Of a DNA stretch of 64,000 nucleotides, positions 3,637 to 63,477 are shown in pieces (within the stretch, counting starts at the first letter, position 1; every line of letters begins with the position of its first letter). Position numbers and translations under genes: made by a program. The notes under the pieces are model-generated. The model was not told the origin of the DNA, made no database searches, and saw nothing but the letters and a program-made list of their open reading frames with translations. This DNA is from an archaeon (GTDB lineage: Archaea; EX4484-52; WAPT01). Where the stretch lies: contig JAPDKB010000002.1 of the NCBI GenBank assembly GCA_029258795.1, positions 50,822 through 114,821 on the forward strand, given 5' to 3'.

Positions 3637-3640
3637 GGTA

Positions 3641-6954: not shown

Positions 6955-6978
6955 ATAAAAAACATTTAATTCGGCAAG

Positions 6979-7819: not shown

Positions 7820-7826
7820 AGGTTAT

Positions 7827-8726: not shown

Positions 8727-8820
8727 AATCTCTTGCAGTCAGCATACATTGTTATTTTATAGTTTTCTATTTTCGTTATGAGATGTGAGCGAAAGCTTTT
8801 TGTAGTTGATTTTTTGAACT

Positions 8821-9636: not shown

Positions 9637-9756
9637 AGGCCAATTAATGACCTTCTTTGTATTATTCGTTCTCTTGTGTCCTACTGCATACGACATTCTA
9701 TCATCGAGATACTCTCTAAAATTCTATAGTAGTAACCAACTTTTGAAAGTTCACAT

Positions 9757-10685: not shown

Positions 10686-10843
10686 TAAGTCTCATTATGC
10701 TTTTTTAATTATAAAATTTACGGCTCCAAGCGGCTTCGAGACAAAATTCATAGCTTGAGTTTTCGAGCTATGAAGATCAGAACTCCATACCACAAAAATT
10801 AGTTAGCTAAAACATTTCCGTATAAAAAACCATATTATACAGC

Positions 10844-11848
10844 ATGGGGGATAAAAAGAAAAGAAAAATAACAACCGAGGAAATAAGAGACATTACAAAC
10901 AAACTTGATAAAATAATCAAATATTACAAAGAGAAATACGGGGAAGATAAGAGCAGGAGAGACTGGCGTACATATGAGCAGAGAAGAACATTAAGGATGA
11001 AGCAGGCAGGGAGAGAGCTAAAAAATCTTATAGAAAGGGCTGCAGAGAATATAGAAATAGCTAAGGATAACAACAGGGGAAGAAAGCCGAAGCTTACAGC
11101 CAAGGACAAAGCCCTGATCATTCTTATAAAGGAAATATTCGATCTGAGCAACAGAGAACTTGCTGATATGATATTCATCTTTTCCTTAATGGCAGGAGTT
11201 GATGTAAGTTATAAAACCATTGAGAGAGCTTACGATGATGAGCTTGTTAAGTTAAGCCTGCACAACTTATTCGTTCTCATGGTTAAGGAAAAGATTATAG
11301 ATGATGTTGAGCTTGCTGGAGATGGAACTGGATACAGCTTGAGCATTAAGAAGCAATATGCTGATATTGAGGATGAGGGAAAGCAAAGAAAGGATTTCGT
11401 TTATTACTTTGCTCTGCTCGATTTAAGAACAAATCTTTATGTTGGATATGGCTACAGTAAAAGGTCGGAGAGGGATGCTTTTGATAAGGCCATGAAAATT
11501 ATGAGTAAGCTCGGCATTAATGTTAAGAGTGTGAGGCTTGATAGATATTATTCAAGCAACGCTGTGGTTAAAGAATATTTTGATGATAAGGATGTTAAGC
11601 TTTATTTAATTCCCAAGAAGAATGCTTCTGTTAAAGGCTGTAAGAAATGGAAGGAAGTTATGCATGGCTTTGCTGATGATGTTTACGGGTTTTTGCGTGA
11701 GTATTTTAAAAGGAATAAAGTTGAAAGCATGTTTTCCTTTGATAAGCGTAAGTTTTCTTCTCGATTAAGGGTCAGGAAGGATGAGAGAATTGCTACGAGC
11801 TTGCTTGCAAGGACTGTCTTGCATAATTTGTTTTGGTTTTATGGTTAG
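10844..11848 (+). CDS. Putative DDE-type transposase (family uncertain)
   Basis: 334 aa; lysine-rich N-terminus with HTH-like region, LAGDGTGYSL and later acidic motifs; sits among IS elements; family assignment not verified. Confidence 0.45.
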   Translation: MGDKKKRKITTEEIRDITNKLDKIIKYYKEKYGEDKSRRDWRTYEQRRTLRMKQAGRELKNLIERAAENIEIAKDNNRGRKPKLTAKDKALIILIKEIFDLSNRELADMIFIFSLMAGVDVSYKTIERAYDDELVKLSLHNLFVLMVKEKIIDDVELAGDGTGYSLSIKKQYADIEDEGKQRKDFVYYFALLDLRTNLYVGYGYSKRSERDAFDKAMKIMSKLGINVKSVRLDRYYSSNAVVKEYFDDKDVKLYLIPKKNASVKGCKKWKEVMHGFADDVYGFLREYFKRNKVESMFSFDKRKFSSRLRVRKDERIATSLLARTVLHNLFWFYG

Positions 11849-11923
11849 CTATTGGGTTAATTTTGTCCCAAAGCCACCACAACCACAAACTTTATATACG
11901 ACGATCGCAATATTTCTATCTGG

Positions 11924-12952
11924 GTGATTTGGATGGCGGAGAATTCTCCTAATTACCGATATGATCCTCTCATAGGCGAGCTTTACTTGAATAAAATCTC
12001 GTGTGAGTTAACAACCAGAAAGTTTCACAATGACTTGAGGAGGGAGTTCGAGGCCATTCTGGGCGCGGTAGCTAAATCCATGTTCTACACGGTGGGTAAG
12101 GTAACGGGCATGATTGTTGCAAAGTACTTTGATGATATTGATGTGCTTTCGTGGATGGGTTGGGGTGTGCCTCTGGTTAAAAAAGATGGAAGCGTGGAAG
12201 TTAAAAATTCTTACATGACCATGTATCGGAGCGAGATAGGCAAGAAGTCATGCGATATCGTTGCAGGATTTCTGGCAGGGTGGTTCAGTAGGAAGGAAAA
12301 GGATAATGTCGATTTTATAGAATCGAGGTGCGCCTCAACCACTAAGTTCAAGACCTGCAGGTTTGAAAGGGTTGAAAAGAATGTGGCTGTCGAAGTACCT
12401 AAAATCAGGATGAAGAAGCCCAGAGAACACCTGAAAAATGTGAATATAAACCTGAAACCATCCAGTGGTGAGATAATTTATAGGGGAGATTCGTCTCTCA
12501 TCATTCCACGTGGCTTTACCGCGATCTTTCAGAGGGAATTTGAAAGGGTGATCGGGGCTGTTGCTTCCAGAAAAATGTACGAAGTTGTGAAGAAAATAAG
12601 TTATGAGGCAGTTGTGAAGGAGCAGGGGTTCAGGTTTATTGGACTTGCTATTCTTCCCAAATTCATCCGTGCAAAGCTGCTTCTTCATGAAGAGCTTGTG
12701 CAGCTACCCGAAAGAGGTTTTGGGAATGTCAGGGTTTTAAGACTGGATTTGAAGGAAGGGATTCTGCTGGAAATTGATAATTCTTACAACGCATTCACCT
12801 ACGGTAAGGTTGGCAAGCCCGTGTGTCACACGCTTGCAGGAGTTCTTGCGGGAGGTGCCAAGGCGGTGATTGGCGGAGATTGGGAATGCGTGGAGAATAA
12901 ATGCGTTGCTGCAGGAGATGGTGTCTGCGAGTTCGAGTTGAAGCCGGCGTGA
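11924..12952 (+). CDS. Tandem V4R domain protein
   Basis: 342 aa; two repeats ending in V4R-like Cys motifs (CDIVAGFLAGWFS...CASTTKFKTCRFE and CHTLAGVLAGG...WECVENKCVAAGDGVCEFEL). Confidence 0.55.
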   Translation: MIWMAENSPNYRYDPLIGELYLNKISCELTTRKFHNDLRREFEAILGAVAKSMFYTVGKVTGMIVAKYFDDIDVLSWMGWGVPLVKKDGSVEVKNSYMTMYRSEIGKKSCDIVAGFLAGWFSRKEKDNVDFIESRCASTTKFKTCRFERVEKNVAVEVPKIRMKKPREHLKNVNINLKPSSGEIIYRGDSSLIIPRGFTAIFQREFERVIGAVASRKMYEVVKKISYEAVVKEQGFRFIGLAILPKFIRAKLLLHEELVQLPERGFGNVRVLRLDLKEGILLEIDNSYNAFTYGKVGKPVCHTLAGVLAGGAKAVIGGDWECVENKCVAAGDGVCEFELKPA

Positions 12953-13011
12953 AAGTACTGCAAAATTTAAAAGTTAACGCTGTAAAATATTTTTCGTTCT
13001 CCTGCCCGGGT

Positions 13012-13181
13012 GCGGGGGTTGCCGAGCCTGGCCAAAGGCGCTGCCTTGAGGGGGCAGCCGCCGCGGTGTATGAGAGGTGGCGCCGCAGTGGCCCATTCCC
13101 TTAGTGGGTTCGAGGGTTCAAAAGCTTGGTCAAGCCGTCCTCCCTCGGCAGCTTAAATGGCTGGAAGTCCCTCCCCCCGCA
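13012..13181 (+). tRNA. tRNA-Leu (anticodon GAG, tentative) with two non-canonical introns (variable region and T-loop)
   Basis: GCGGGGG acceptor pairs with CCCCCGC+A+CCA; D-arm GCCGAGCCTGGCCAAAGGCG; anticodon arm CTGCC-TTGAGGG-GGCAG; T-stem GAGGG...CCCTC split by ~45 nt; ~40 extra nt before the variable arm (TCCCTTAGTGGGTTC). Confidence 0.6.
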
Positions 13182-13213: not shown

Positions 13214-13351
13214 GCGGGGGTTGCCGAGCCTGGCCAAAGGCGCGGGGCTTAGGACTCCGTGGCTCAGTGCCTGCGTGGGTTCGAAGGCCGCTGTTCGGTG
13301 GCTGGGTTTTCAAGTCCGATCTTAACGCGGCCGGAACTCCCACCCCCCGCA
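13214..13351 (+). tRNA. tRNA-Leu (anticodon TAG) with T-loop intron
   Basis: Same 30-nt 5' end as the upstream Leu gene; anticodon arm CGGGG-CTTAGGA-CTCCG; long variable arm; T-stem GTGGG...CCCAC interrupted by ~50 nt after TTCGAA; CCA encoded. Confidence 0.65.
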
Positions 13352-20896: not shown

Positions 20897-21316
20897 ATGA
20901 AAATCTGTGTTCCAGCAACAGGAGAGGGTCTTGAGGTAAGGATATGTCCTGTATTTGGCAGAGCACCTTACTTTGTTTTTGTGGAGGTGGATGATGGAGG
21001 AAACATAACCTCATGGAACGCGGAAAAGAACCCAGCCGAGTATGCGAGGGGTGGTGCGGGCATAATGGCATCCCAGAAGGTGGTGGATGCTGGCTGTGAT
21101 GCACTCATAACCATTTCAATCGGGCCTAAAGCCTATGATGTGCTGAGAGCATCGGGAGTGAAGGTTTATGCCGGGGTGGAGGCATCGGTAAAGGATAATG
21201 TTGAAAAGCTGGTTAGAAACGAGCTGAGCGAGATGGTTGAAGCTGTGCCTGGAAGGTTCGGAAGAGGATGGAGAGGAGTAAGGGGCTTTGGAGCAGGGAG
21301 AGGGTGGAGATGGTGA
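20897..21316 (+). CDS. NifX/NafY-like (dinitrogenase FeMo-cofactor-binding fold) protein with RG-rich tail
   Basis: 139 aa; MKICVPATGEGLEVRICPVFGRAPYFVFVEVDD...GCDALITISIGPKAYDVL resembles the Nitro_FeMo-Co domain; C-terminal GRGWRGVRGFGAGRGWRW. Confidence 0.65.
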   Translation: MKICVPATGEGLEVRICPVFGRAPYFVFVEVDDGGNITSWNAEKNPAEYARGGAGIMASQKVVDAGCDALITISIGPKAYDVLRASGVKVYAGVEASVKDNVEKLVRNELSEMVEAVPGRFGRGWRGVRGFGAGRGWRW

Positions 21317-22569
21317 AGAACAGACACGCTGCTTTACGTGAGGGAATTAGGGCTATGCGTAACGTTTCCGTAGCTCTATTGCTGCTTGCTGCCCTGAAAT
21401 TTGCAGTTGGAATCATTGCCAACGCTCCCGTGCTTGTAGCGGACTCGCTCCATACCCTTGTGGATCTTTCCGCGGTGCTTGCCGTGCTTTTAGGCATAAA
21501 GCTTGCTACAAGACCTCCCTCGGAAAGGTTTCCGTACGGTTATTACAAGGCCGAATCTCTGGCAGCGCTTTTCGTTTCGGTAATCATAATGTACGGCGCG
21601 TACGAACTGGTTGGTGGGGCATTGCACAGGTGGAAGGAAGGCGCAGCCATCAACATGGTTCCGCTGGCTTCGGTTGTTGCAGCTATATCTCTGGTGCTCT
21701 CTTATATCCTTTCCAAGTATGAGGAAAGGGCAGCATTGCTGACGGGATCGGATGCCATCTCTGCCACCTCAAAAGAAGCATTGCTTGACGTCTTTTCTTC
21801 GGGCATGGTTCTGGTTTCCATCTTGCTCTCGTCAGCAGGACTTGCGTTCGTTGAAAGCGCAGTTACCATCCTCATCAGCCTGCTGGTTTTCAAGCTCGCT
21901 TTTGAAAATGTGTATTCAAGCATCATGGCTTTGATGGATGTCAGCCCTAGCAGGAAGATGGAGCAAAATGTAAGAAAAGTTCTGGAGAGCATGCCCGCCA
22001 TAGTTGGTTATAGGGACATGCGTCTCAGAAAGGCGGGCCCGTTCATATTTGGGGAGGTAACCATAATTACGGATCCAAAGCTTGATGTCGAAAAAGCCCA
22101 CAGCATTGCTGACGAGGTTGAGAGGAAAGTTATGGAAGAGGTGCCGCAGATAGAGCATCTTGTGGTGCATCTCGAGCCGTATGAGAAAGAGAAGTTGAGA
22201 GTTATCGTGCCCGTTACAGGGAATGAGGGAATGAATTCAAAACTTGCAGAACACTTCGGAAGGGCTGAAGGGTTCCTCATCTTTGAGGTTGAAAAAAAGA
22301 AGGGGAAAATGAAATTGCTTGATTTTGTCAAGAACTTGCAAAAACAAAAGAAGGTGAGAGCGGGATTAGCTGCCGCAAAACAGCTGCTGAAAAATGTCGA
22401 GTTTGATGCAGTCATAACTAAAGAGATGGGAGAGATAGCGTTTCATGTCCTGAAGGATGAGGGTAAGGATGTTTACAGGGCAAAAGGCTCTACCGCTGAA
22501 GAGGCTGTGAAGCTTTTCATGAAGGATGAGCTTGAAAAACTGGATACGCCCACAAAGGAAAAGGAGTGA
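21310..22569 (+). CDS. Cation diffusion facilitator (CDF) transporter fused to a C-terminal NifX-like domain
   Basis: CDF signature ADSLHTLVDLSAVL...RPPSERFPYGYYKAESLAALF with multiple TM helices, then LRVIVPVTGNEGMNSKLAEHFGRAEGFLIFEVE (NifX-like); ATG at 21310 overlaps the upstream stop (ATGGTGA). Confidence 0.7.
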   Translation: MVKNRHAALREGIRAMRNVSVALLLLAALKFAVGIIANAPVLVADSLHTLVDLSAVLAVLLGIKLATRPPSERFPYGYYKAESLAALFVSVIIMYGAYELVGGALHRWKEGAAINMVPLASVVAAISLVLSYILSKYEERAALLTGSDAISATSKEALLDVFSSGMVLVSILLSSAGLAFVESAVTILISLLVFKLAFENVYSSIMALMDVSPSRKMEQNVRKVLESMPAIVGYRDMRLRKAGPFIFGEVTIITDPKLDVEKAHSIADEVERKVMEEVPQIEHLVVHLEPYEKEKLRVIVPVTGNEGMNSKLAEHFGRAEGFLIFEVEKKKGKMKLLDFVKNLQKQKKVRAGLAAAKQLLKNVEFDAVITKEMGEIAFHVLKDEGKDVYRAKGSTAEEAVKLFMKDELEKLDTPTKEKE

Positions 22570-22573
22570 GGTG

Positions 22574-22918
22574 ATGCGAATGAAAATTGCCATACCGCTT
22601 GAGGAAAATAAGGGGGTTGATTCAAGAGTTGCGGAGCACTTCGGAAGGGTGAGATTCTTTCTGATATATGATACGGAAAGCGGAAGTTTTGAGGTGGTTG
22701 ATTTTGAGAAGGAGGAGGAAGGAGTCTGCAGCCCTGCGAGCTTTCTCATAGAGAGAGGTGTGCATGCCGTTTATGTGCTTGGAATGGGTTACAAAGCGAG
22801 ATGCATGCTTGAGGAAGCAGGCGTGCAGGTTCTCACAGGAGAGTACACGATAGCGAGAGACATCCTCAAAAATCTCGACCGCTTGAATAAATTTGAGGGA
22901 GGGTGTACTCATCACTGA
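22574..22918 (+). CDS. NifX/NafY-like domain protein
   Basis: MKIAIPLEENKGVDSRVAEHFGRVRFFLIYD...GVHAVYVLGMGYKARCMLEEAGVQV; RBS-like AAGGAGTGAGGTG upstream. Confidence 0.6.
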   Translation: MRMKIAIPLEENKGVDSRVAEHFGRVRFFLIYDTESGSFEVVDFEKEEEGVCSPASFLIERGVHAVYVLGMGYKARCMLEEAGVQVLTGEYTIARDILKNLDRLNKFEGGCTHH

Positions 22919-22942
22919 AGTGGAAAGTGCGGTGTGTGTTCG

Positions 22943-23815
22943 ATGCCCTTTACGATATGTGTTGTTTCAGGTAAGGGTGGTGTTGGCAAGACAACGGTAG
23001 CCGCAGCTCTCTCCAAAATATTGGCAAGAAAGTACAGGGTACTTGCGGTTGATGCGGATGTTGAATGCCCAAACCTCCACATCCTTTTGAAGGCAGGAGA
23101 GCTTGAGAAGGTGAGGGACGTTTGCACCACGCTTCCCGAGATAGATGAGAAGCGATGCATCCAATGCGGCAGGTGTGTGGAAGTGTGCAGAAAAAACGCG
23201 CTTTTCAGGAGAAAAGAAGGAGTTCCTCTCCTAATAGAAGAGCAGTGCAACGGCTGCAAGGCATGCTTCATTGTGTGTCCCACCAAAGCTATAGGGGAGA
23301 AAAAAGTTGTGATGGGAACGATAAGGAAGCGCGTGATCGAAAATGACAGGCTGGTTTTGCTATCCGGAGAGTTAGAGGTGGGACAGGAGGAGCCGACACC
23401 TGTTGTCAGAGAGCTGATGAGGGAGGTTGAAGCTGTAAAGCGTGATTTCGATTTTGTGGTGGTGGATGCAGCTCCCGGCGTGAAGTGCAACGTGGCTGCA
23501 GCTCTCGAGGGATGCGATCACACCTTGCTTGTTGTGGAGCCGACACCTTTCGGTGTTGAAGATGCGAAGCGAGTTGCGGAGCTAATCAAAATTATAGGTG
23601 TGGATGCTCATGTTGTCATCAACAGGTCTGTAAAGCGGGAGGAAGATGAGAAGAGAGTAATGGGTAGCGTACCATTTTCTGTAATCTGTACTTTACCCTA
23701 CTCCACGGAAGCCGTTAGACTCTATGTGGCAGGAGATGTGGAAAAGATGGAAGGTATAGGGGATATCGCAAAAGCTGTGGAGAAGCTTGCGGAGCTTTCG
23801 GGTGAGGAGGGATGA
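22943..23815 (+). CDS. MinD/ParA-superfamily P-loop ATPase with inserted 4Fe-4S ferredoxin domain
   Basis: Deviant Walker A VVSGKGGVGKTT; two Cys clusters CIQCGRCVEVC and CNGCKACFIVCP. Confidence 0.75.
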   Translation: MPFTICVVSGKGGVGKTTVAAALSKILARKYRVLAVDADVECPNLHILLKAGELEKVRDVCTTLPEIDEKRCIQCGRCVEVCRKNALFRRKEGVPLLIEEQCNGCKACFIVCPTKAIGEKKVVMGTIRKRVIENDRLVLLSGELEVGQEEPTPVVRELMREVEAVKRDFDFVVVDAAPGVKCNVAAALEGCDHTLLVVEPTPFGVEDAKRVAELIKIIGVDAHVVINRSVKREEDEKRVMGSVPFSVICTLPYSTEAVRLYVAGDVEKMEGIGDIAKAVEKLAELSGEEG

Positions 23816-24693
23816 AGAAAGTTGTGGTTGCATCCGGAAAGGGAGGGACGGGCAAAACAACCATCGCGTCAAGCCTCGCGGTGACGGCAGCAAAGCATTG
23901 TAAAGTGGTGGTGGCTGACTGTGATGTTGACGCTCCCAACTTGAAGCTGATTCTGGGGAAAGATAATATGGATGGCTTTGATTTTGTGGAGGTCAGCACG
24001 TCGGAGAAGGCATGTGTGGGTGAGCAGCGCTGCATCAACTGCGGGAGGTGTGTTGAAGCGTGTCAGTTTAATGCCATGCAGTGGGACAACAAGAAAAAGC
24101 TACCGAAGGTCAAGAAGATTTACTGCGAGGGTTGCGGAGCATGCCAGCTTGTGTGTCCAGCTGGAGCCATAGAAATAAAGGCTGTTAGAAACGGTAGAGT
24201 GGGGTGGGGAAAGCTAAGCCCAAATCTCTGGCTGGTTTTCGGTGAGCTTTACGTGGGAGAGTCAGCAAGTGGTAAAATAGTGGTGGATGTGAAGAAGAAA
24301 GCTCTCGAGCTTGCAAGAAATATAAATGCTGACCTGTTCATTGTTGATGCTTCCGCAGGTATAGGATGTCCCGTGATAGCATCCATGGCGTTCATGGATC
24401 ACGCTCTCATCGTTGCGGAGCCCACACCCTCAAGCGTCAGCGACATGGAAAGGATGCTCATGCTGGCGGAACACTTCAGGATGGAAAAGAGCGTGGTGAT
24501 AAATAAAGCCGGGCTGAGCGAGAGATGGCGAAAGGAAATAGAGACCATGGCATCGAGATATGATGCGGAAATCATAGCCACAATTCCGCACGACATGAGA
24601 GTTATGAATTCTGTATCAAGGCTCGTTCCTCTTGTTGAATATGAAGCCTCTTATCTTCCTTTATTCGAAAAAATTCTGACAAGATTACTCTGA
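23812..24693 (+). CDS. MinD/ParA-superfamily P-loop ATPase with ferredoxin domain (paralog)
   Basis: VASGKGGTGKTT; CINCGRCVEAC and CEGCGACQLVCP; start overlaps upstream stop (ATGA). Confidence 0.75.
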   Translation: MKKVVVASGKGGTGKTTIASSLAVTAAKHCKVVVADCDVDAPNLKLILGKDNMDGFDFVEVSTSEKACVGEQRCINCGRCVEACQFNAMQWDNKKKLPKVKKIYCEGCGACQLVCPAGAIEIKAVRNGRVGWGKLSPNLWLVFGELYVGESASGKIVVDVKKKALELARNINADLFIVDASAGIGCPVIASMAFMDHALIVAEPTPSSVSDMERMLMLAEHFRMEKSVVINKAGLSERWRKEIETMASRYDAEIIATIPHDMRVMNSVSRLVPLVEYEASYLPLFEKILTRLL

Positions 24694-25173
24694 AAAGAAC
24701 AGCTTCCTGTAATTCTCTGCTAGCTTAACAACCACAACCTTCCCTTCTTTCTCCCTGCTCACCACCCCTCTCTTCTCCAGCCTCTGCACAGCCCTGAAAA
24801 CGCGCAGCTTATCAAGCCTTGCCTGCTTTGCTATCCTTGCCTGTGTACTCTCTCCACCGCTTTCAAGCAAGATCTTCATAACTCTGGCCTCATCATCTCT
24901 GAGCAAGCTAAGCAATAGCTTCTTTTGCTGCGTTTCATTTCTGAAGCGGGGAGAAAGAAGGTAGTAGGTCGTGGTGCCTATGAAAAGGCCGAGCACCCCT
25001 ATGAAAGGAATAAAGAGGTAAACGGGAATGGCACAGGCGCAAATATCTCCTTCGTACACATGTTCCTGCACGTAAAGGGAAGAGAGAGCAACTATAAAAA
25101 CAAAGATGGACAGAATAAGCATTGCAAGTATGATTTTTTTATGGAGAGTTTTGAATGATAACGAGCTGTCCAT
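24685..25173 (-). CDS. Membrane-anchored winged-helix transcriptional regulator (hypothetical)
   Basis: 162 aa; two N-terminal TM helices, then an HTH-like segment ARVMKILLESGGESTQARIAKQARLDKLRVFRAVQRLEKRGVV. Confidence 0.5.
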   Translation of the reverse strand: MDSSLSFKTLHKKIILAMLILSIFVFIVALSSLYVQEHVYEGDICACAIPVYLFIPFIGVLGLFIGTTTYYLLSPRFRNETQQKKLLLSLLRDDEARVMKILLESGGESTQARIAKQARLDKLRVFRAVQRLEKRGVVSREKEGKVVVVKLAENYRKLFFSE

Positions 25174-25231
25174 GTATCTGGCATGAGCGGAGAAAAACTT
25201 TTATATATATCTTTGGGTGCAATTAAAGGTA

Positions 25232-26164
25232 ATGCCCGCAAAAAAGCAGAGCTTTGGAGAATTTTTGAAGGATAATGTGGCAACGTCTTTCAAGCATGCG
25301 ATCCACAGCAGGAGTTTTGTGATAGTTTATCTTTTTCATCTCGTGTTTTTCTCGGCGATGATTTACACAGCATTAAAAATGGTTCCTTCTTTTCTCCAAC
25401 TGAGCATCGCTCAAGAAATGGGGATCGGGCTTGCTGCAGGCACGAACACAGCCGGAATTCTAATGACGCAGTTCGTATACTTGGGAGTGATATTTATCAT
25501 ATACTGGCTCCTCAGCTATGTCATAACGGTTGCAGTGCTGGTGGGATTTGATGAGATGAGACGCACCAAAAAAGAGGGAAGGTTTCTTGATCACTTCGTT
25601 TACGGGTTTTATCGGCTGCCCACATTGATAGGCATAGCTATCGTTTCCGCCTTGCTCATGCTTCCCGGTGCAATACTATCCGAGCTGGTCAAGAAGGTGT
25701 CATTGACTGCCGGAAGCTTTGTTTATGACGTTTATTCCATTGTTCTCACACTGACCATTTTGCTTGCTGTGCCATATGCCGTGCTGAAGAAGGAAGGCAT
25801 CCTGAGTTCCATCAAGAAATCCTACCGTGCCTTTAAGGACAATCCCGTCGAGATTCTGATCTCCTATCTTGTGGGGGTCGCGGTCTCGCTCTCTGTTGTG
25901 CTCGCATTTCTCGTGCCGGTTGGTGTTGTGCTGGTCATGAAGCTCTCTCCAGCCATATCACCACTCTTACAGCAGCTGGGTGGCGCAGCACAACAAAACC
26001 CGCAGCTTATGGTGGGTTCAATCTCCGGAATAGTAACCGCACTTTATCAGCACCGTTACTGGCTCATTGGAGGTTATGTTGTTGGCATTGTGGGTTTCAC
26101 ACTTTCTTACCTTTTCTGGGCTTCTTATCTAGTAGGGTTGTTCAGGAGGTACGGGAGAAAGTAA
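25232..26164 (+). CDS. Polytopic membrane protein (hypothetical)
   Basis: ~310 aa with at least 6 hydrophobic helices; ATG at 25232 within ORF 25217..26164. Confidence 0.45.
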   Translation: MPAKKQSFGEFLKDNVATSFKHAIHSRSFVIVYLFHLVFFSAMIYTALKMVPSFLQLSIAQEMGIGLAAGTNTAGILMTQFVYLGVIFIIYWLLSYVITVAVLVGFDEMRRTKKEGRFLDHFVYGFYRLPTLIGIAIVSALLMLPGAILSELVKKVSLTAGSFVYDVYSIVLTLTILLAVPYAVLKKEGILSSIKKSYRAFKDNPVEILISYLVGVAVSLSVVLAFLVPVGVVLVMKLSPAISPLLQQLGGAAQQNPQLMVGSISGIVTALYQHRYWLIGGYVVGIVGFTLSYLFWASYLVGLFRRYGRK

Positions 26165-26244
26165 TTCGTTGATTGACGGTATTCTCTGAAGGGTGAATTC
26201 TAATGTTTTAAAAATTTAAAGTGTAACTATCAAGCGGTGAAATT

Positions 26245-26874
26245 ATGAATGATGATCGGGTAAATAAAATTAAAATCATGTATGTTTTAATCCCGGTGCC
26301 TGTATCGAAATCTCCATTTATTGAAAATGAACACAAAACCTATTCTGAAAAGAGCAAGTCTGGTGTGATACATCCAGAAATACTTTCTGCTGGTTTTGCA
26401 GCATCCCTTTTTGAGGATAAGCATTTTGAGCGCATTTATAAAAAGGTCGCGCGAAGATTTGGGAATCATTTAGGAAGTAGAACGTATGATGTCAAAAACA
26501 GAGGTTCTCTTCCACTAATGGTCATTGAGGCATGCTCAAAAGCTGTGGGTCTAGATGCTTTGGATCCTGAAGAAATTTATATCCAGAATTTATTGGAATT
26601 CAAAAGAAACAAAGAATATCGAATTCAGGTTTTGAAAGAGTGTTCTGAGATGAGCAAGGGAGCGAGGTACAAAGACAAGTATGTGGAGGTCATACGCCAA
26701 TTCTTGGGCGATATACCTTGGTACAAGAGAATAACGGAGAAATTAAAGGGCAAGCAGGGTGACGATTTTGAGAATATGGAAGGACTGGGTAAAGAGATTC
26801 ATGAACACATTATCGATGGTTATTTCATCTTACATGATTACCTCCAACAAAAATCGTGTGAATGTTACGGGTGA
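26245..26874 (+). CDS. Hypothetical protein (ORFan, AT-rich island)
   Basis: 209-aa ORF, AT-rich codon usage distinct from neighbours; no recognisable motifs. Confidence 0.4.
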   Translation: MNDDRVNKIKIMYVLIPVPVSKSPFIENEHKTYSEKSKSGVIHPEILSAGFAASLFEDKHFERIYKKVARRFGNHLGSRTYDVKNRGSLPLMVIEACSKAVGLDALDPEEIYIQNLLEFKRNKEYRIQVLKECSEMSKGARYKDKYVEVIRQFLGDIPWYKRITEKLKGKQGDDFENMEGLGKEIHEHIIDGYFILHDYLQQKSCECYG

Positions 26875-27971
26875 TGCATATGCAGGCTATGGAGCTTCCA
26901 CCACTATTTAAGGAAACAGAGGAAAAATACGAAGTGCATAGGTTGCCTGAGTATATAATTACTGATAAAGAAGTTAAAGATGAGAAAAAAGCTAACTCAT
27001 ACCGTGATAGCGGATATTTCGTTGTAGAGGGTAAAGTATATTCACTACCTCCAGAAGTTCCGGCAGCAGGACTTGCTTCTTCAAGATGGGATGATGACGA
27101 GATAGTAGAATATTATCTAAACTACCTTATCAGAGATTTTATCCCTAAAGAAAAGAAAAAGTTCGTTGAACACTATATTGATAACCCATTATCTATAGCT
27201 AAAACCTTGGGTCCCGAAAATATAATTTTGAGAGTTTTTGGTAAGGAAAGTATGAAGGATAAAAAAATTTATGAAGAAAAGGTAAAAGACACGGATCAAG
27301 ATAAGCTGCGCGGATTACTTCCTGCTATCTGGGCAGAATATTATTTTCAGAATCCATTTTATCATATGTCCTACAGCCCGTATGAAGAGCTGAAAGAAGG
27401 AACAACGGCTAAAGACATATACCTTCTGTGTATTCACGGATTCCGTGACAATCCTAAATATAAGGAGAAAGCTCTACACACTTGGGGTAAGTGGAGCGAG
27501 CTTGTAGGGCACACGGATGATCCTCTTATCGAGAAATACCGCATTCTCAGTACAGACCCAGAAATGGAGACCAGACTGAGACGTGAGACCATGGAACTTC
27601 TGGCGGCACCTATTGCTGCCGGAACGATTCTCGGTGTCGGAACATTATCCACAGCGCTCCTCGCACAGACAGATGTGCTCAAGTGGGGCTTGAAGGCAGG
27701 ATTTGAAGCTTACAAACACACAGGTGTTACGGGTGCGATTCCAGCACTAGCATATGGAGCGGTCGCGATTCCCGGATTCATAATCGGCGGTACTGCAGGT
27801 TGGCTGGTCTACAACATCCTCGGAAAAATGGGTGGAGAGAAAATAAGTGAAGGAAAAATACGAAGGATAGAGGAGGATAAAAGCAGGGTGAGGACAGAGC
27901 TTGAAAAAGACATGGAAATCTATCAGAATCTTGCAGACAGTTACTACCGGATGTTAAGAGCTTTGGAATGA
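26862..27971 (+). CDS. Hypothetical protein with C-terminal glycine-zipper membrane segment
   Basis: 369 aa; soluble N-terminal part, then AAPIAAGTILGVGTLSTALLAQ...GVTGAIPALAYGAVAIPGFIIGGTAGWLVYNILG, then a charged coiled-coil tail. Confidence 0.45.
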   Translation: MLRVMHMQAMELPPLFKETEEKYEVHRLPEYIITDKEVKDEKKANSYRDSGYFVVEGKVYSLPPEVPAAGLASSRWDDDEIVEYYLNYLIRDFIPKEKKKFVEHYIDNPLSIAKTLGPENIILRVFGKESMKDKKIYEEKVKDTDQDKLRGLLPAIWAEYYFQNPFYHMSYSPYEELKEGTTAKDIYLLCIHGFRDNPKYKEKALHTWGKWSELVGHTDDPLIEKYRILSTDPEMETRLRRETMELLAAPIAAGTILGVGTLSTALLAQTDVLKWGLKAGFEAYKHTGVTGAIPALAYGAVAIPGFIIGGTAGWLVYNILGKMGGEKISEGKIRRIEEDKSRVRTELEKDMEIYQNLADSYYRMLRALE

Positions 27972-27972
27972 A

Positions 27973-30828
27973 TTAAGAGACGGGTAAGGAAGGGTTGTTG
28001 GGCCAGTAATACATGGCATCTATTTGTGCATATGCCCATTCCTCCGCCATACCCATTCCAAATTCTGCCACCGCAAGCCACGCACCAGCGGTAAAGTACG
28101 CTGCCACTACGTTAACCGCAGTCATGAAAGCGCTAACACCCAATTTCAAAGCCTGTTCTTGAAGGGTGCCGCTTCCATAGTAACAGAAGTTGTCAGTGTT
28201 TGTTGGAGCTCGAACAACCGAAACCGTGATTACGGGGTGAGTGGTTTTATCAATTAGCTGTTGAGGCACAATACCGTCTAAAGCACTTGTGAAGATATTG
28301 GGTGGATTACAGCTTCTTTTGACCTTAACGTTAGTCGGGAGGATATCAACATCTTCTCCAAGCCAATGCTTAAAGGAGCTGTAATCATAGAGTTCGTTAT
28401 TGGCACGACCGGTGGGCTCAAAAATACCCCATATCGGATTATTCTCTGGTGTCTTTCCCACACAGTAAACTTCCTCTCTTATGGGTAAGGGCATACCATT
28501 CTCTACTATTATTCCTCCAGCACCAGTAACTTTAGCCACATAAACACAGGATTTAGGCCAAGAGGCACATATGTCTCTTGGAGGTGGTGTGAACGGATTC
28601 ACGAAATCGGTAAACCAACTCCAGTCCGCACCAGAATAAGGTAACAAATTACACATTTGGATTAATGCCGCGCACTCCTCATACATTTTTCGAGTTTCAT
28701 TATTATCATCTTTTGTTACTACGTGGTCGATTACATGGTCTTGATAATATTTTTGGAGGTCATCAAGCACCTCGTCATCAGAGTGTGAGTCATCGAATAG
28801 AACTAATTCAGTATGCGTTTTAATATCTTCAGGAATTTTTTCGGTGTCACAATTAAGCTTTGTTTTGACATATTCCGCACACACATGTCTATCAAATCTA
28901 GTGACAGCACATTCTTTTGTGGCGGTTTTTGAAACCAGCAAGTCCGCTTTGCAGGGAGCGGCAAAATACATTCTTAAACTTGAACCTCCCTTGTCGATCT
29001 CCACAAAATAAGGTCTGACTTCATCCACCAGCTTTATGGTTTGAGTTGCCCTCTCCGGGCTGGCGGAAGCCGTGAGAATGTCCAGCAGGAACACTTTTTG
29101 AGGGGAGTAAACATGAAGTGTGTTATAGTCAGAAGGCAACTCCTTGACTTTGAGTGCCATGTCTATTTGCTGAGTGGTATAGAGGAGTGCAGCAAGAGCA
29201 CAGGTCGAAAATCTCTTGAAAGGTCTACCACTGCCTGTCAGAGCTGTGCACTCATAAGAGTTTTTCGCAACTTGTGCCCAGTAAGAATCTTCCGGTATGA
29301 TCTGATCCGCAAGTCCGGTATCATCAAGCGCTTCCAGCATCCAGAAGGAGAAATGTGCACCTTCTCGGTAAGCCAGAAACTTCATAACCTCCGGGAAATT
29401 CTTCCCCACCCCTTTCCAAAATTCCGGACTTAATTTTCGCTGACCCATGAAGCCATATTGATCGGCTAACTTTCTTATATTATTTTTGAGCGCTTGGTAT
29501 GTAGTTTCATCATTTAGAGCATCCTTGAGTATACCCATCGCCTCTTCTTTACTTCCAGCATTTTTTATCTTCTCCAAGGTTTCTTCCGGTAAGTCCTTCG
29601 CGATTGTCGATGCTATTTTGTTATCTGTTTTTAGAACTACCACTGCCAACTTGCTATCTAACTCACCACTTTTTACCCCCTTAACTATTTCATAGATTCT
29701 TTTCCATTGATCTCCCATTTCTTTTATGCTTAGAGTGTAACCTTTAGTGTTAAGATCTCCAAAAATTTCTCGAAAAACAACACTTCCGTCCTCTCCATTT
29801 CTAATAGCATTTTGCAGCTTTTCGGCTGCTTCTTTGGCAACGTTTTCACTCACGCCTTTATTTTTTAACCACTTTTCAAAACTCTCCGCCAGGATTTCGT
29901 CTCCATCCTTTCGTAGCGTCTTGGCAAATCCTTCCAAGCCCTCAGTACAGCTTTTTAGTGCAATTCTGGATAGAACCTTCCCTTCTCCTCCAAATATTCT
30001 GCCCAAAAAGTTCAGTTTTTTAAGCGCCTTAAAAGCCTTCCCAGCTATACCGCCGCCAACGTTCAAAAATCCCGCAAGCACCATACTTCCGAAGAGGTCT
30101 GCAGCTTCTTCAGACTCGAGCCATGCCTGCTCTTCTCCCTCTGGAAAAGAATTGTAATAAATTATGACATCAGGGTCGTAATATTTTGGTTTGATTCTCT
30201 CACCGAACTCAACTTTCCCGCTTTCATGCTGTTTCAAGTCAAAATTGAACACTTTACACTTGAATTCTGGTGTGTTCAGTTGAGAATAGTATTCAGTTAT
30301 CTTCTCATCCTTGCTGGCGGGATTGCTCCATAAAGCATCTTTTGATAGCAATGTGCTGTTCGCACACACAACAACACTATTACCGAACCTGTAAGCAACG
30401 GGTTTTTCCTCAGCATAGGCAAGCTCGATTCCAAATAATCCTGTTACAATGTTCTCAACCTTTCTCTTAACTCTTTTCATATCCCTTATCATCATCGCCG
30501 TTGGGTTGTTTTTTCCAGCTTCTATTGCATTTATTGCATCATCAAATGTGTATAGAGGCTCTATCGTTACTGATCCTGCATTGTTCGTTATTTCTGAATT
30601 TTCACAGGTATAGTCGTTAATGTATCCTGCAGCCTCACTGTTTATTGCGCAAGCTAACGCTAGAGCTGAAGCCTGGCTTATGGGGTCGATTTTGAACTCG
30701 AGAAGCTTGCTTAAGAATTCATTCAGGCCTATGATGAATGCCACAAGAAGAAACAATATGAAAATGAAGAGAAGTATTCTAAAAATAGGTTCTTCTTTCA
30801 ACGTGGCTTTGGTACGGGAGAGTTTCAT
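27973..30828 (-). CDS. Large (951 aa) signal-anchored extracellular protein, hypothetical
   Basis: N-terminal TM anchor FRILLFIFILFLLVAFIIGL; long Cys-containing C-terminal region; AT-rich; abuts the tRNA-Gly 3' end. Confidence 0.55.
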   Translation of the reverse strand: MKLSRTKATLKEEPIFRILLFIFILFLLVAFIIGLNEFLSKLLEFKIDPISQASALALACAINSEAAGYINDYTCENSEITNNAGSVTIEPLYTFDDAINAIEAGKNNPTAMMIRDMKRVKRKVENIVTGLFGIELAYAEEKPVAYRFGNSVVVCANSTLLSKDALWSNPASKDEKITEYYSQLNTPEFKCKVFNFDLKQHESGKVEFGERIKPKYYDPDVIIYYNSFPEGEEQAWLESEEAADLFGSMVLAGFLNVGGGIAGKAFKALKKLNFLGRIFGGEGKVLSRIALKSCTEGLEGFAKTLRKDGDEILAESFEKWLKNKGVSENVAKEAAEKLQNAIRNGEDGSVVFREIFGDLNTKGYTLSIKEMGDQWKRIYEIVKGVKSGELDSKLAVVVLKTDNKIASTIAKDLPEETLEKIKNAGSKEEAMGILKDALNDETTYQALKNNIRKLADQYGFMGQRKLSPEFWKGVGKNFPEVMKFLAYREGAHFSFWMLEALDDTGLADQIIPEDSYWAQVAKNSYECTALTGSGRPFKRFSTCALAALLYTTQQIDMALKVKELPSDYNTLHVYSPQKVFLLDILTASASPERATQTIKLVDEVRPYFVEIDKGGSSLRMYFAAPCKADLLVSKTATKECAVTRFDRHVCAEYVKTKLNCDTEKIPEDIKTHTELVLFDDSHSDDEVLDDLQKYYQDHVIDHVVTKDDNNETRKMYEECAALIQMCNLLPYSGADWSWFTDFVNPFTPPPRDICASWPKSCVYVAKVTGAGGIIVENGMPLPIREEVYCVGKTPENNPIWGIFEPTGRANNELYDYSSFKHWLGEDVDILPTNVKVKRSCNPPNIFTSALDGIVPQQLIDKTTHPVITVSVVRAPTNTDNFCYYGSGTLQEQALKLGVSAFMTAVNVVAAYFTAGAWLAVAEFGMGMAEEWAYAQIDAMYYWPNNPSLPVS

Positions 30829-30868
30829 AGTTATGGTTTTGATATTAAGTGGTATTTATTGATTTTGG

Positions 30869-30988
30869 TGCGCCGGCCGGGATTTCCTGCTGCGGAACAG
30901 CCGGAAATGTGAGGGAGTTTCTTCCGCAGCAATCGAACCCGGGTCAGCGGCTTGGGGGGCCGCTGTCATACCACTAGACCACCGGCGC
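30869..30988 (-). tRNA. tRNA-Gly (anticodon CCC, tentative) with T-loop intron
   Basis: Reverse complement gives GCGCCGG acceptor pairing with CCGGCGC+A+CCA; anticodon arm GCGGC-CCCCCAA-GCCGC (unusual C at position 33); T-stem CCGGG...CCCGG split by ~47 nt after TTCGA. Confidence 0.6.
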
Positions 30989-31067
30989 ACAATATCCAAT
31001 CTTCTGCAAGAATGTTTTTGCCGGTTCAACCTTTAAATTTATTAATGATGCAACCCACAATTTCGTC

Positions 31068-31583
31068 ATGACTGGAATAACGATTCGCGAACCAGAAATG
31101 AATGATGCCAAGCTTCTTCTTGAGTACTTTAACGAGCTGATGGAGGAGAGAACATATCTGGTTTATGATAGAAAGATGACGTTGCGAGAGGAGAGAAAGT
31201 GGTTGAAGGAACAGCTGGAGAAGATGAAGAAGGGCAAGCTGGTTTTTGTTGTTGCCGAAGCGGACGGGAGGATCGTCGGCACAGCGCGTATAGAAAGAAA
31301 GAATGGTAGAGAGAGTCATCTTGCAGAGTTCGGGATAGCGGTATCCAAGGACTACAGGAGCAAAGGCATCGGAAAAATGCTGTGGAATGCAGGTTATGAA
31401 CGCGCTAAAAAGCTATGGGGCGGAAAAGTGAGATACCTCATTCTGTATGTTTTTGAGAACAATGATATCGCACAAAATTTTTACAGAAAACTGGGCTTCA
31501 AGGAAGTTGCCCGCGTCCCGAATGCCATAAGATGGAACGACGGAAGTTTGATAGATGATATAGTGATGATGCGAGAATTCTGA
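31068..31583 (+). CDS. GNAT-family N-acetyltransferase
   Basis: 171 aa; acetyl-CoA-binding-like motif VSKDYRSKGIGKMLW and the NNDIAQNFYRKLGF block typical of GNAT. Confidence 0.75.
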   Translation: MTGITIREPEMNDAKLLLEYFNELMEERTYLVYDRKMTLREERKWLKEQLEKMKKGKLVFVVAEADGRIVGTARIERKNGRESHLAEFGIAVSKDYRSKGIGKMLWNAGYERAKKLWGGKVRYLILYVFENNDIAQNFYRKLGFKEVARVPNAIRWNDGSLIDDIVMMREF

Positions 31584-31590
31584 TGTTTCG

Positions 31591-32613
31591 TCATTTCCTC
31601 TTCTTTCCACACCACACATGCACCAGCATTTCTTCCCTGCTAATTCCACCATGAGCACCTATAAGCTCAGCACTTTTTTGCCTCTCAAACGGGTAAACGA
31701 ACCTTGCATTATTATCCGCTATTACCACCACATTTCCATACATCCTGTAACATCTTCTGCTTATTCTTCCTTCAAACAATTCGGATAGCGCACATATCTC
31801 CACATATTTATCCTGAGGCTTAAGCGCCTTCGACACAGTATCAACAGTTGTGTCCTTGTAAAAAGCCACTCTGCTACCGCCGACAGGCACACATCCGTCT
31901 ACTTCCGGCAGTTTGATTTTATGTGTGGTTTTTATCAAACCGTGATCGGATAAAATGATCAATTCCGACCCTTCAGGCATCTTTTTCCAGAGATGTTTTA
32001 CGAATACCTTTATCATTGCTCTCTCGACCGTCATGGCATCGTTATCAAAACTCTTGTGAAGTATGCGATCCACACCATCCCAATAGATGAGTGAGAAATC
32101 CGCTTCTCTGAGTGGGAACACCTCAGACAGTTGCTTTATCCCTACGATTTCGGCGTGCTTGCATGTCATTCTCGTGAAAATGCTATCTGGATATGGCGTG
32201 TAGTAGCATGCTTTCAGTCCCATCTCGTATAACATTTGGGATAATGGCTTGAAAGGAAAGACACGTCTTTTAAGAATCTTTTCATCAACTTCTACACTTT
32301 CGGGATAAGCTACGTGCCAAGGAGGGATCTCCATTATCAACTCCTCTCCATAAACTTCAACTCTCGCATACCATTCCAGATAGCCGTGCTGATGTGGATC
32401 CTTCAGTGAATGGAACGAGTATTGAAATGTGGGTGTGGATGACGGAAAGACAGTTCTATATAAGTGCCTTTTCAGGGACCTTAAGCCAAGCTCCCTTGTA
32501 CCAAACCCATCAATAAGAAAGAGTACAGTTGGGTGTTCCTTTGCAATTTCGGGAATATCTCGAATCAAATCCATCAATTTAGGTATCTCTTCATACCGGA
32601 ATGAGCTCCTCAT
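31591..32613 (-). CDS. Alkaline-phosphatase-superfamily protein (phosphodiesterase/pyrophosphatase-like)
   Basis: 340 aa; metal-ligand-like motifs LFLIDGFGT, ILSDHG and GAHGG. Confidence 0.5.
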   Translation of the reverse strand: MRSSFRYEEIPKLMDLIRDIPEIAKEHPTVLFLIDGFGTRELGLRSLKRHLYRTVFPSSTPTFQYSFHSLKDPHQHGYLEWYARVEVYGEELIMEIPPWHVAYPESVEVDEKILKRRVFPFKPLSQMLYEMGLKACYYTPYPDSIFTRMTCKHAEIVGIKQLSEVFPLREADFSLIYWDGVDRILHKSFDNDAMTVERAMIKVFVKHLWKKMPEGSELIILSDHGLIKTTHKIKLPEVDGCVPVGGSRVAFYKDTTVDTVSKALKPQDKYVEICALSELFEGRISRRCYRMYGNVVVIADNNARFVYPFERQKSAELIGAHGGISREEMLVHVWCGKKRK

Positions 32614-35215: not shown

Positions 35216-35365
35216 GGGCCGGTGGTCTAGCCTGGAAGGACGTCGCCTTGGCATCACACAGCTTTCACGGCTGTGTGCCAGTATGGCGGAGGCCCCGGGT
35301 TCAAAATGGCTGCTTACGCCGTTTTAAGAATCGGGCAAGCTTTCATGAAAATCCCGGCCGGTCCA
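35216..35365 (+). tRNA. tRNA-Ala (anticodon GGC) with a canonical anticodon-loop intron and a second intron in the T-loop
   Basis: Acceptor GGGCCGG/CCGGTCC gives the G3:U70 alanine identity pair; D-arm GTCT-AGCCTGGAA-GGAC; anticodon stem TCGCC...GGCGG with ~30-nt insert after TTGGCA containing a 9-bp hairpin; T-stem CCGGG...CCCGG split by ~45 nt; CCA encoded. Confidence 0.75.
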
Positions 35366-40255: not shown

Positions 40256-40537
40256 GCGGCAGGGCTAGGCCGGGGAGCTAGCCCCTCCCTGTAACCGCAA
40301 ACGGGCTAACGGCGGGGCCGAAAACCGGGGGGCGGGCGATTGGCGGCTCGCTGGGCAGCTTGCTGCTGAACAATGACTCTCTGCCCCCGAAGGCCGCTGT
40401 ACCGGTGAACCGGGTCAGGCCCGGAAGGGAGCAGCCCTAAGCCGGTACTTCGGTGCTTCGGGATCAGCGGAGAGGAGGTAGGCAGCATCTCTGCCCGCGA
40501 GCTTAGCCGCGCTCCACCCCCGGGAAGCCCTGCCGCG
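40256..40537 (+). ncRNA. Signal recognition particle RNA (7S/SRP RNA)
   Basis: Helix-8 core GGUGAACCGGGUCAGGCCCGGAAGGGAGCAGCCCUAAGCC; 5' GCGGCAGGGCUAGGCCGGGG pairs with 3' CCCCGGGAAGCCCUGCCGC; GC-rich ~280 nt; TATA-like AAAATATTTAA about 30 nt upstream. Confidence 0.75.
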
Positions 40538-45184: not shown

Positions 45185-45646
45185 ATGATGAGGAAAGGTC
45201 TGACGCCTATCATAGCGATGGTTTTGCTTTTAATGCTGGCTATAGCCGCAGGAGGTATGCTTTTTGTTTTTGCACAAAAGATGCAGTCGAGTTTACAGGA
45301 AAATGTCCAAAAAGAAATGTTGTCTGAAGCAGAGAGGCAGGCGATGAGGGTTGCTATAGTTAGTGTCTACAAGACAAGTGAGGGTAAAATTGGTGTGGCT
45401 GTAAGAAATATAGGAAGGAAAGATATTCCTACAGATTACATAAGTCTTTATCTAAATGGACAACCCGTATCCGATGTTACCTTCAATTGCGACGGCACAA
45501 TTCAAGTTTTTAAAACCTGTGGATTGAAATTAGACAACATGGACTTTCCGGGAGATGGTGAGCGGTTTACTATCAGAGTGGATGCTCCCGGGAACACTGA
45601 TACTAAAGTATGTAAATCAGAGGGCGGGATGTGCGTTCCTCCATAA
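45185..45646 (+). CDS. Archaeal type IV pilin-like protein (class III signal peptide)
   Basis: MMRKGLTPIIAMVLLLMLAIAAGG: RKG followed by hydrophobic helix is the prepilin-peptidase substrate pattern. Confidence 0.6.
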   Translation: MMRKGLTPIIAMVLLLMLAIAAGGMLFVFAQKMQSSLQENVQKEMLSEAERQAMRVAIVSVYKTSEGKIGVAVRNIGRKDIPTDYISLYLNGQPVSDVTFNCDGTIQVFKTCGLKLDNMDFPGDGERFTIRVDAPGNTDTKVCKSEGGMCVPP

Positions 45647-45658
45647 ACCTTTTATTTT

Positions 45659-46315
45659 GTGGTGTTGAGTATGAGGCCGAAAGCTCAGGTTCAGGCAGTT
45701 TCCTATGTATTGGTGTTGGGAATAATCTTAGCCACGGTATCAGCAACCTATTTTTGGGGGTTACCCCTTCTTCAGAAAGGAGAGGCGACAAGCAAGCTCG
45801 AATCTGCAAAAAATACAGCAATGGAAATAGCAGACACTCTTAATGATGTTGCTACAACTGGCTCTCAGAAAACCCTGACCTTTAATCTTTACGGGATGGT
45901 TAAAATAGATCCAAACGATAATTCCATTTATTACATTATCAGGTCTCAAAAAAGCCCCTATGCCCTGAATGTGTGGATTCCGCTGGGTAGTGATGAACCA
46001 CATGGTGTGAAAGGTACGGAATGGGAAAATTCAACCGCGGTTTTGGGTCAGGATCCACCAGCAACTGTTCTTGTCAGGGCTGAAAGGTATGGTTCAGAAT
46101 ATGTTATTCTCTACAGGATCGCATTTAGAGAACTTTACGATTTGGATAGTGGGGAGAGTTATTATTATAATCTAACAGCAGGAGGTAATACTCAGGTGAC
46201 GGCAGGAAGGGCCACATTAACTCTTACTAAAGGAGAACCAACAAGAAGTGGAAGCAACAGTTTAGGCGGCAAAAGGATAAATGTACCGATCTATGCAGGA
46301 GTGAATTCTGGATAG
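45659..46315 (+). CDS. Pilin-like protein
   Basis: N-terminus MRPKAQVQAVSYVLVLGIILATV fits a class III signal peptide (K-A then Q and hydrophobic stretch). Confidence 0.45.
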   Translation: MVLSMRPKAQVQAVSYVLVLGIILATVSATYFWGLPLLQKGEATSKLESAKNTAMEIADTLNDVATTGSQKTLTFNLYGMVKIDPNDNSIYYIIRSQKSPYALNVWIPLGSDEPHGVKGTEWENSTAVLGQDPPATVLVRAERYGSEYVILYRIAFRELYDLDSGESYYYNLTAGGNTQVTAGRATLTLTKGEPTRSGSNSLGGKRINVPIYAGVNSG

Positions 46316-46332
46316 TTTTTTTTAGTTTTAAG

Positions 46333-63471: not shown

Positions 63472-63477
63472 CGCACA

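Follow-up and report, generated by a model that had tools for sequence, protein, structure and literature searches.

A Three-Gene Region Beside an Intron-Bearing tRNA-Gly Gene Encodes a Member of an Archaeal Membrane Protein Family Found in Type IV Pilus-like Operons

Positions 26245-30828 of the 64,000-nucleotide (nt) archaeal DNA stretch analysed here (contig JAPDKB010000002.1; the whole stretch is hereafter called the window) hold three genes on the 3' side of a tRNA-Gly gene, encoding proteins of 209, 369 and 951 amino acids (aa). The 951-aa protein belongs to a sizeable archaeal family, which we label F0, for which there is no Pfam or NCBIfam model, and which is common in metagenome-assembled genomes (MAGs) of DPANN archaea, where its genes are found within type IV pilus-like operons. 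The reading that we favour, and to which we give a probability of about one half, is that the region is a resident, lineage-specific set of cell-surface genes, composed of a stand-alone pilus-associated F0 protein, a membrane-hairpin partner and a small cytoplasmic protein. The adjacency to tRNA-Gly is most likely incidental. A first-pass annotation had seen in this region an AT-rich island of ORFan genes, possibly a decayed element integrated at the tRNA gene and carrying a surface protein or a toxin-like pair.

The layout of the three genes given in that annotation was found again in the open reading frame (ORF) listing. The genes of the 209-aa (26245-26874) and 369-aa (26862-27971) proteins are on the forward strand and overlap by 13 nt; a database gene call starts the second of them at 26880, which gives a protein of 363 aa and a 5-nt gap. 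These two genes are apparently co-transcribed. The gene of the 951-aa protein (27973-30828, reverse strand) is convergent with them, and a single base (27972) separates the annotated ends of the 369-aa and 951-aa ORFs. The region is flanked by CbiA, MarR and 315-aa protein genes and by tRNA-Gly and GNAT genes, and the window is of archaeal origin, as indicated by an Archaea_SRP RNA at 40258-40534 (Rfam).

The F0 Protein Family

An exhaustive HMMER search with the 951-aa protein found 36 relatives at E <= 1e-3, with E-values of 1e-10 or lower for 12, and thus the protein is not an ORFan. A word-indexed homolog search with the same protein returned nothing, and even the match of the protein to itself was absent, the ENA contig being truncated within this gene. 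The full-length members of F0 have 850-1300 aa (P0042, P0043, P0045-P0048, P0050, P0052 and others), and the short relatives, of 137-236 aa (P0041, P0044, P0049, P0051 and P0059), match residues ~760-950 only, so that the C-terminal module stands alone as a gene for ~180 aa in other archaea. In addition, the F0-like sequence of locus L030 (1-918), which looks like a short form, is really a long F0 gene with one in-frame stop in an otherwise continuous sequence, which may be a pseudogene, an assembly error or recoding; the short forms of loci L002 and L029 are genuine.

Alignment revealed a single architecture across F0 members that are only ~25% identical, with five invariant cysteines (C60, C75, C191, C626 and C882). 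In the 951-aa protein, hydropathy indicates a strong N-terminal anchor at residues 9-45, in agreement with its earlier description as signal-anchored. The anchor is followed by a conserved Cys-containing head (~46-240), a hydrophobic segment (242-266), a charged helical region (~270-530), a Cys-rich domain (~555-890) and a hydrophobic hairpin (892-926), and the protein ends with YWPNNPSLP. The family motifs come in a fixed order: ALRCAI(N/D)S, F(K/R)CKVFNFxLPQ and DPDxIIYYExFPxGEExAW follow the N-terminal anchor and precede the hydrophobic segment, and FYLASPCxADL, NYCYxG, the hydrophobic hairpin and the terminal YWPNNP are found past the long charged helical stretch. The AlphaFold2 (AF2) model of the 951-aa protein, based on a 9-sequence alignment, had a predicted local distance difference test (pLDDT) score of 50.5 and was confident only at residues ~50-230, modelled as a long helix with a sheet of four strands, and at residues ~560-640.

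No F0 member has a Pfam match, the members tested also lack NCBIfam and PDB-sequence matches, and a sequence-profile search of PDB with the family was negative. Similarly, the 951-aa protein gave no Pfam, PHROG, NCBIfam or PADLOC match; it has no DUF2341 or other known domain, and no Fsx1/HAP2 match was found for F0.

Genomic Contexts of F0 Genes

The neighbours of F0 genes were compared by gene-neighbourhood clustering of all ORFs in 28 loci. Fourteen F0 loci come from a scan of GTDB genomes, and nearly all of them are in DPANN MAGs (Aenigmatarchaeota, Woesearchaeota and Nanoarchaeota/Nanobdellati); two are in MAGs labelled Methanosarcinales. In 6-9 loci the F0 gene is a part of a recurrent cassette of the order F2, F0, F1, in which F2 is a protein of 290-372 aa with a start resembling a class III signal, and F1 is an N-anchored protein of 213-272 aa with an FVDEDWK motif. 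A class III signal is a short charged n-region with [KR][GA] at positions -2/-1, followed by a hydrophobic helix of ~20 residues. Directly upstream of F2 lie 1-3 small (~90-100 aa) Cys-rich ORFs with textbook signals of this kind, e.g., "KKG-AELSMNVIIVAAIALMVLVVL". A heuristic version of the motif ([KR][GA] and a hydrophobic N-terminus) was found in 14 of 19 F0 and 5 of 6 F2 proteins.

A link to pilus machinery is seen in two loci of uncultured archaeon MAGs, L015 (911-12753) and L022 (3037-10612). In both, the gene of a T2SSE ATPase (PF00437, E = 4e-15) is followed by that of F17 and then by F0, which in L015 is present in two copies followed by F1. F17 is a protein of 707 aa with about nine predicted transmembrane segments, and it matches T2SSF of the window (phmmer, E = 1.3e-7). 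Further class-III-signal ORFs are present downstream in both loci. The operon appears to be a complete but unusual type IV filament (TFF) system, with F0 in the place where pilins would be expected. Across the loci, class-III-like ORFs account for 52 of the 174 genes within 4 kilobases (kb) of F0 and for 6 of the 141 genes farther away (odds ratio 9.6, p ~1e-9), an enrichment that is to be read with the reservation that the motif is heuristic and that the loci are not phylogenetically independent.

In a second context, represented by loci L004, L010 and L013, F0 genes are accompanied by genes of giant DUF2341/RCC1/NosD-like proteins, a Cys-rich TSP_3 protein and a transglutaminase-like protein. 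The cluster in L004 (JGI 3300016457, Ga0186713_117126, 1-13127), all on the same strand, is headed by the gene of an archaeal fusexin, labelled Fsx1/HAP2-GCS1 in the precomputed Pfam annotation and scoring 34.6 bits for HAP2-GCS1 in our own scan (cut-off, 27.4). It contains P0042, the closest full-length relative of the 951-aa protein (E = 6e-41), and is followed by small ORFs, a gene for an Hjc-like nuclease and a transposase gene. The large proteins of the L010 and L013 clusters had no fusexin match. In its make-up the L004 cluster is similar to the accessory genes of archaeal type IV pili (T4P). The report on fusexins in integrated mobile elements (PMC9259645, Moi et al. 2022) links them to VirB4, TraG and other genes of type IV secretion system type, and makes no mention of a pilus-accessory-like cluster.

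In the third context the F0 gene stands alone among housekeeping genes. This is the case in the window and in loci L007, L009 and L018.

The Partner Genes

The N-domain of the 369-aa protein is soluble; it is followed by a pair of Gly-rich hydrophobic helices (~243-270 and ~288-321), and the protein ends in a helical/coiled tail. This bears out its first description as a protein with a glycine-zipper membrane segment and a coiled-coil tail. It had no family match in Pfam or NCBIfam, a profile search of PDB with the protein and one relative was negative, and its AF2 model, made from an alignment of two sequences, was unusable (pLDDT 35). Among the matches listed it has two relatives. One of them (P0002, locus L002) is 62% identical and is encoded tail-to-tail with an ORF of 185 aa, to which residues 767-949 of the 951-aa protein align with 59% identity. 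This match delimits the C-terminal module of the 951-aa protein (residues ~767-951, encoded at 27973-28530, reverse strand). The short F0 form in L002 is genuine, since many stops are present upstream of it and the neighbouring gene is divergent. No tRNA gene adjoins this pair. The second relative, in locus L003 (161-1192), is 47% identical, split over three frames and not accompanied by an F0 module; as in L030, this may reflect a pseudogene, an assembly error or recoding. The comparison of L002 with L003 indicates that the conserved unit consists of the 369-aa protein gene and the C-terminal module of F0.

In L029 and L030, too, a convergent partner is encoded next to the F0 form. That of L030 shares the architecture of the 369-aa protein, but their sequence similarity is not significant (hhalign probability 5%). 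We rejected homology of the 369-aa protein to the L029 partner, to the proteins encoded convergently to F0 or downstream of it in L007, L009 and L004, and to F1 and F2 of DPANN archaea, for which the hhalign probability was below 2%.

The 209-aa protein is soluble and charged. Apart from a 99% identical copy in a near-identical strain (L001, see below), no homolog of it was detected, and Pfam, PHROG, NCBIfam and IMG/VR gave no match. A possible paralogy with the 369-aa protein was not accepted, as it would rest on one 17-residue patch (E = 0.019). Thus, the designation of the three proteins as ORFans holds for the 209-aa protein and fails for the 951-aa protein, and the 369-aa protein has the two relatives named above.

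An Intron-Bearing tRNA-Gly Gene Missed by Standard Tools

The gene upstream of that of the 951-aa protein is tRNA-Gly(CCC), at 30866-30988 on the reverse strand, with the 5' end at 30988, the discriminator base at 30869 and a genomically encoded CCA at 30866-30868. It contains a non-canonical T-loop intron of ~47 nt that forms a hairpin (inverted repeat). In the unedited window, ARAGORN reported tRNA-Leu only, leaving the tRNA-Gly at 30.9 kb unreported, and Rfam at the gathering threshold gave no tRNA near this position. Once 46-50 nt of the T-arm had been deleted, ARAGORN called tRNA-Gly (ccc). Both tools miss the gene because of the intron. The start of the 951-aa protein gene lies 37-40 nt past the 3' end of the tRNA, on the same strand, so that the first-pass annotation was right in its call of tRNA-Gly and in placing the region on its 3' side.

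Several other tRNA genes of the window contain non-canonical introns, and ARAGORN and Rfam either overlooked them or detected them in part; besides tRNA-Gly, these are at 55853-55973 (reverse strand), 35218-35365 (forward strand) and ~1684-1800 (forward strand). A T-loop intron of ~46-48 nt is present both in tRNA-Gly(CCC) and in tRNA-Thr(GGT). The tRNA at 35.2 kb apparently has two introns, of which the one in the T-loop resembles that of tRNA-Thr, and the candidate at 1.7 kb looks multi-intronic. The locus illustrates how tRNAs with T-loop introns escape standard tRNA finders in this lineage.

The Region Does Not Have the Hallmarks of an Integrated Element

The 3' side of a tRNA gene is where an integrated element may be suspected, and the region could be the rest of such an element that has lost its integrase and attachment (att) repeat and kept its surface-protein cargo. 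We consider this unlikely. In its favour, the three genes lie exactly 3' of the tRNA, their GC content at third codon positions is below that of the flanks (see below), the 209-aa and 369-aa proteins are nearly devoid of relatives, and the distribution of F0 is patchy and its contexts are varied, among them the contig on which a fusexin is accompanied by an Hjc-like nuclease and a transposase. However, no exact repeat of tRNA-Gly of at least 11 nt was found in the window outside other tRNA genes, and the 19-nt tRNA 3' end, with up to 3 mismatches allowed, matched only two other tRNA genes in the whole window. A partial repeat of the tRNA 3' end near 26200, for which the first-pass annotation had suggested a search, was thus not found, and no boundary repeats were present within 25000-31200.

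No integrase, transposase or phage domain was found by Pfam and PHROG in the 10 ORFs scanned (21268-32613), which agrees with the earlier remark that an integrase is absent. The transposases of the window are confined to 7-8.7 kb, and IMG/VR holds no relative of any of the three proteins. Moreover, the homologous gene pair in L002 has no tRNA next to it, and a tRNA gene co-directional with the 951-aa protein gene and 37-40 nt upstream of it is an ordinary arrangement.

A metagenomic contig of a second strain (L001, 99.86% identical) carries the region with the identical left junction. Its 16 substitutions over 11.7 kb are not clustered in the region, which shows no excess of divergence. The flanking phosphodiesterase-like gene is at most 49% identical to its nearest homologs, and a scan of GTDB representatives with the C-terminal module gave no match, so the source genome is not among them. 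The lineage has no close sequenced relative that would show an empty site.

The composition of the region does not set it apart either. It had been described as visibly more AT-rich than the core genes, yet its GC content is 0.418 versus a window mean of 0.439, which places it at the 22nd percentile of windows of equal length, and the deviation of its 4-mer spectrum (z = -0.47) is nearer to the window average than that of most segments. The 4-mer test is the one by which mobile elements with fusexins were delimited (PMC9259645). The 4-mer outliers of the window lie elsewhere, with z > 3 in the stretch of 5.5-12 kb and z ~1.7 in that of 50-56 kb. What is lower in the region is the GC content at third codon positions (GC3), which is 0.38-0.41 in the three genes as compared to 0.45-0.54 in the adjacent ones, a difference of ~0.1. 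The left neighbour, at 25217-26164 on the forward strand, has a GC3 of 0.53, typical of the flank, and the compositional step is thus exactly at 26.2 kb. The product of this neighbour is a polytopic membrane protein of 315 aa with ~6-7 hydrophobic segments and a sub-threshold match to DUF7544. The GC3 values of the pilin genes of the window at 45-47 kb (0.37-0.39) are the same as those of the region, and the dip may therefore simply typify genes of surface proteins in this genome.

Like tRNA-targeted islands, the region lies 3' of a tRNA gene and has a GC3 slightly below that of its flanks. In contrast to them, it has no integrase, no repeat of the tRNA 3' end, no mobility gene and no unusual k-mer composition, and it shares its left junction with a second strain. 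Adjacency to a tRNA gene combined with a small dip in GC3 does not suffice for the call of an integrated element. The patch at 5500-12000, a true compositional outlier with a GC content of 0.32-0.38 and a 4-mer z above 3, is a much better candidate for mobile or acquired DNA. It carries two transposase genes on the reverse strand, DDE_Tnp_IS240 (7006-7800) and IS1595 (7827-8726), and ends ~1.2 kb from tRNA-Leu (13223-13300).

The Window Encodes Its Own Type IV Pilus-like Locus

Outside the region, at 57698-63999 on the reverse strand, the window holds a locus of this kind, which runs off its right edge. It comprises genes of a 737-aa transglutaminase-like membrane protein (57698-59911), a pilin (61003-61467), two T2SSF platform proteins (61562-63471) and, at the right edge, a fragment of a PilB-like ATPase gene, all on the reverse strand. 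Further pilin-like ORFs with class III signals were found by the window scan at 45185-46767 and 51426-51854 on the forward strand. The layout of the locus matches that of clade 1 (system 1) archaeal T4P (PMC4858521), whose accessory set is described as comprising giant DUF2341 proteins, a pair of platform genes and linked proteins of the transglutaminase family (PMC4858521; bioRxiv 10.64898/2026.04.22.720090). As the window encodes pilins, T2SSF proteins and an ATPase fragment, machinery able to handle proteins with class III signals is present, and the locus is a candidate for their assembly in this genome.

Proposed Role of the Gene Set

The gene set is best filed with the large class-III-signal accessory proteins of archaeal T4P. 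Like the accessory proteins of clade 1 (Epd-like) T4P, the 951-aa protein is large and has a pilin-like N-terminal anchor and conserved cysteines, and the genes of its relatives adjoin those of a T2SSE ATPase and a T2SSF-like platform protein, of small pilins, and of DUF2341 giants and transglutaminase-like proteins. Unlike the DUF2341 PilY-like adhesins that act with minor pilins in these systems, it has no DUF2341, and it differs from a simple pilin or a PilY-type adhesin in its extra internal and C-terminal hydrophobic segments and its long charged helical region. The window copy also differs from clade 1 accessory genes in its position outside a T4P locus. Stand-alone genes of class-III-signal proteins outside the main T4P locus are common (PMC4858521; Makarova et al. 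2016).

The 951-aa protein would be inserted into the membrane via its pilin-like N-terminal anchor, which in many F0 members is a class III signal possibly cut by prepilin peptidase. It would display one or two disulfide-stabilised extracellular domains and be held in the membrane at the other end by the C-terminal YWPNNP hairpin. With such a topology, it could be a pilus-associated adhesin, a minor-pilin-like protein or an anchoring component, relying on T4P machinery whose genes lie elsewhere, e.g., at 57-64 kb of the window. The 369-aa protein, with its predicted membrane hairpin, cytoplasmic N-domain and coiled tail, may be a co-evolving and physically interacting partner of the C-terminal module, and the 209-aa protein a lineage-specific cytoplasmic add-on. 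The suggestion of the first-pass annotation that the region encodes a surface protein of an adhesin-like kind is in line with these data, as the 951-aa protein belongs to a family of large anchored Cys-rich membrane proteins encoded elsewhere within type IV pilus-like operons.

Besides the reservation on the class-III enrichment, several points weigh against this assignment. No pilin, ATPase or platform gene is present within 10 kb of the F0 gene of the window, the nearest pilin genes being ~14 kb and the nearest ATPase and platform genes ~31 kb away from it, so that the window copy is linked to pili by family membership only. The N-terminus of the 951-aa protein has T-K-A followed by TLKEEP before the hydrophobic helix, which makes it only a loose fit to a class III signal, and it presumably falls outside the strict FlaFind pattern. 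The 369-aa protein is related neither to the DPANN partners F1 and F2 nor to the partners in L007, L009 and L004. Furthermore, a GC3 ~0.1 below that of the immediate flanks would be compatible with an older horizontal acquisition.

A more far-reaching version of the pilus-associated reading, which we put forward very tentatively and think rather improbable as a whole, is that F0, with its separable YWPNNP module and a tail-to-tail membrane partner, is a core component of an archaeal cell-cell contact apparatus built on T4P machinery. Such an apparatus would serve DPANN episymbionts in host attachment and would have been co-opted by fusexin-bearing elements for contact before fusion, the window copy being its stand-alone chromosomal representative in a non-DPANN archaeon. 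If F0 is a pilus-tip, anchoring or contact component, it would offer a concrete handle on the attachment of DPANN archaea to their hosts and would also reveal surface machinery that accompanies archaeal fusexins. The family deserves a model of its own and a structural study, above all the DPANN cassettes and the single linkage to a fusexin.

It is less probable still that the region is a stray remnant or satellite of a fusexin-type mobile element, or of an apparatus of cell-cell contact and fusion, with F0 acting in the surface machinery that joins cells for fusion or DNA exchange. Such an origin is suggested by the same-strand cluster of L004, in which the gene of the closest full-length relative of the 951-aa protein follows that of a fusexin at a distance of a few genes, among those of TSP_3, NosD-like, DUF2341/RCC1, transglutaminase-like and other large secreted or membrane proteins, with an Hjc-like nuclease and a transposase further on, and by the reported occurrence of fusexins in integrated mobile elements (PMC9259645). 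However, no fusexin match was found among the ORFs of the window that were scanned, nor were XerC/D, HerA, VirB4 or TraG-type genes, and the region shows no k-mer deviation. The link to a fusexin was seen in one contig lineage only, and the majority of F0 genes belong to DPANN cassettes of the pilus type or stand among housekeeping genes.

A conflict module of two or three genes, for instance a membrane toxin and its immunity protein, or anti-viral defence, in which the 951-aa protein would be a sensor or effector and the 369-aa protein a pore or immunity partner, would fit the tight and conserved convergent pair, the glycine-zipper hairpin of the 369-aa protein, and the patchy distribution with occasional inactivation (the frameshifts in L003 and the in-frame stop in L030), but it is highly improbable, as PADLOC, Pfam, NCBIfam and PDB gave no toxin, immunity or defence match, contrary to the toxin-like pair first proposed, and the recurring neighbours of F0 are pilins and pilus machinery and not defence genes.

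Other Features of the Window

A further intron-containing tRNA gene is present at 51985-52105 on the forward strand. Rfam detected it with 57 bits, and tRNA-Tyr GTA was only a minority call of ARAGORN after removal of the intron, which leaves its identity uncertain. This tRNA gene adjoins that of a PMT_2-like glycosyltransferase (52433-53863, reverse strand), in which GC3 is as low as 0.26.

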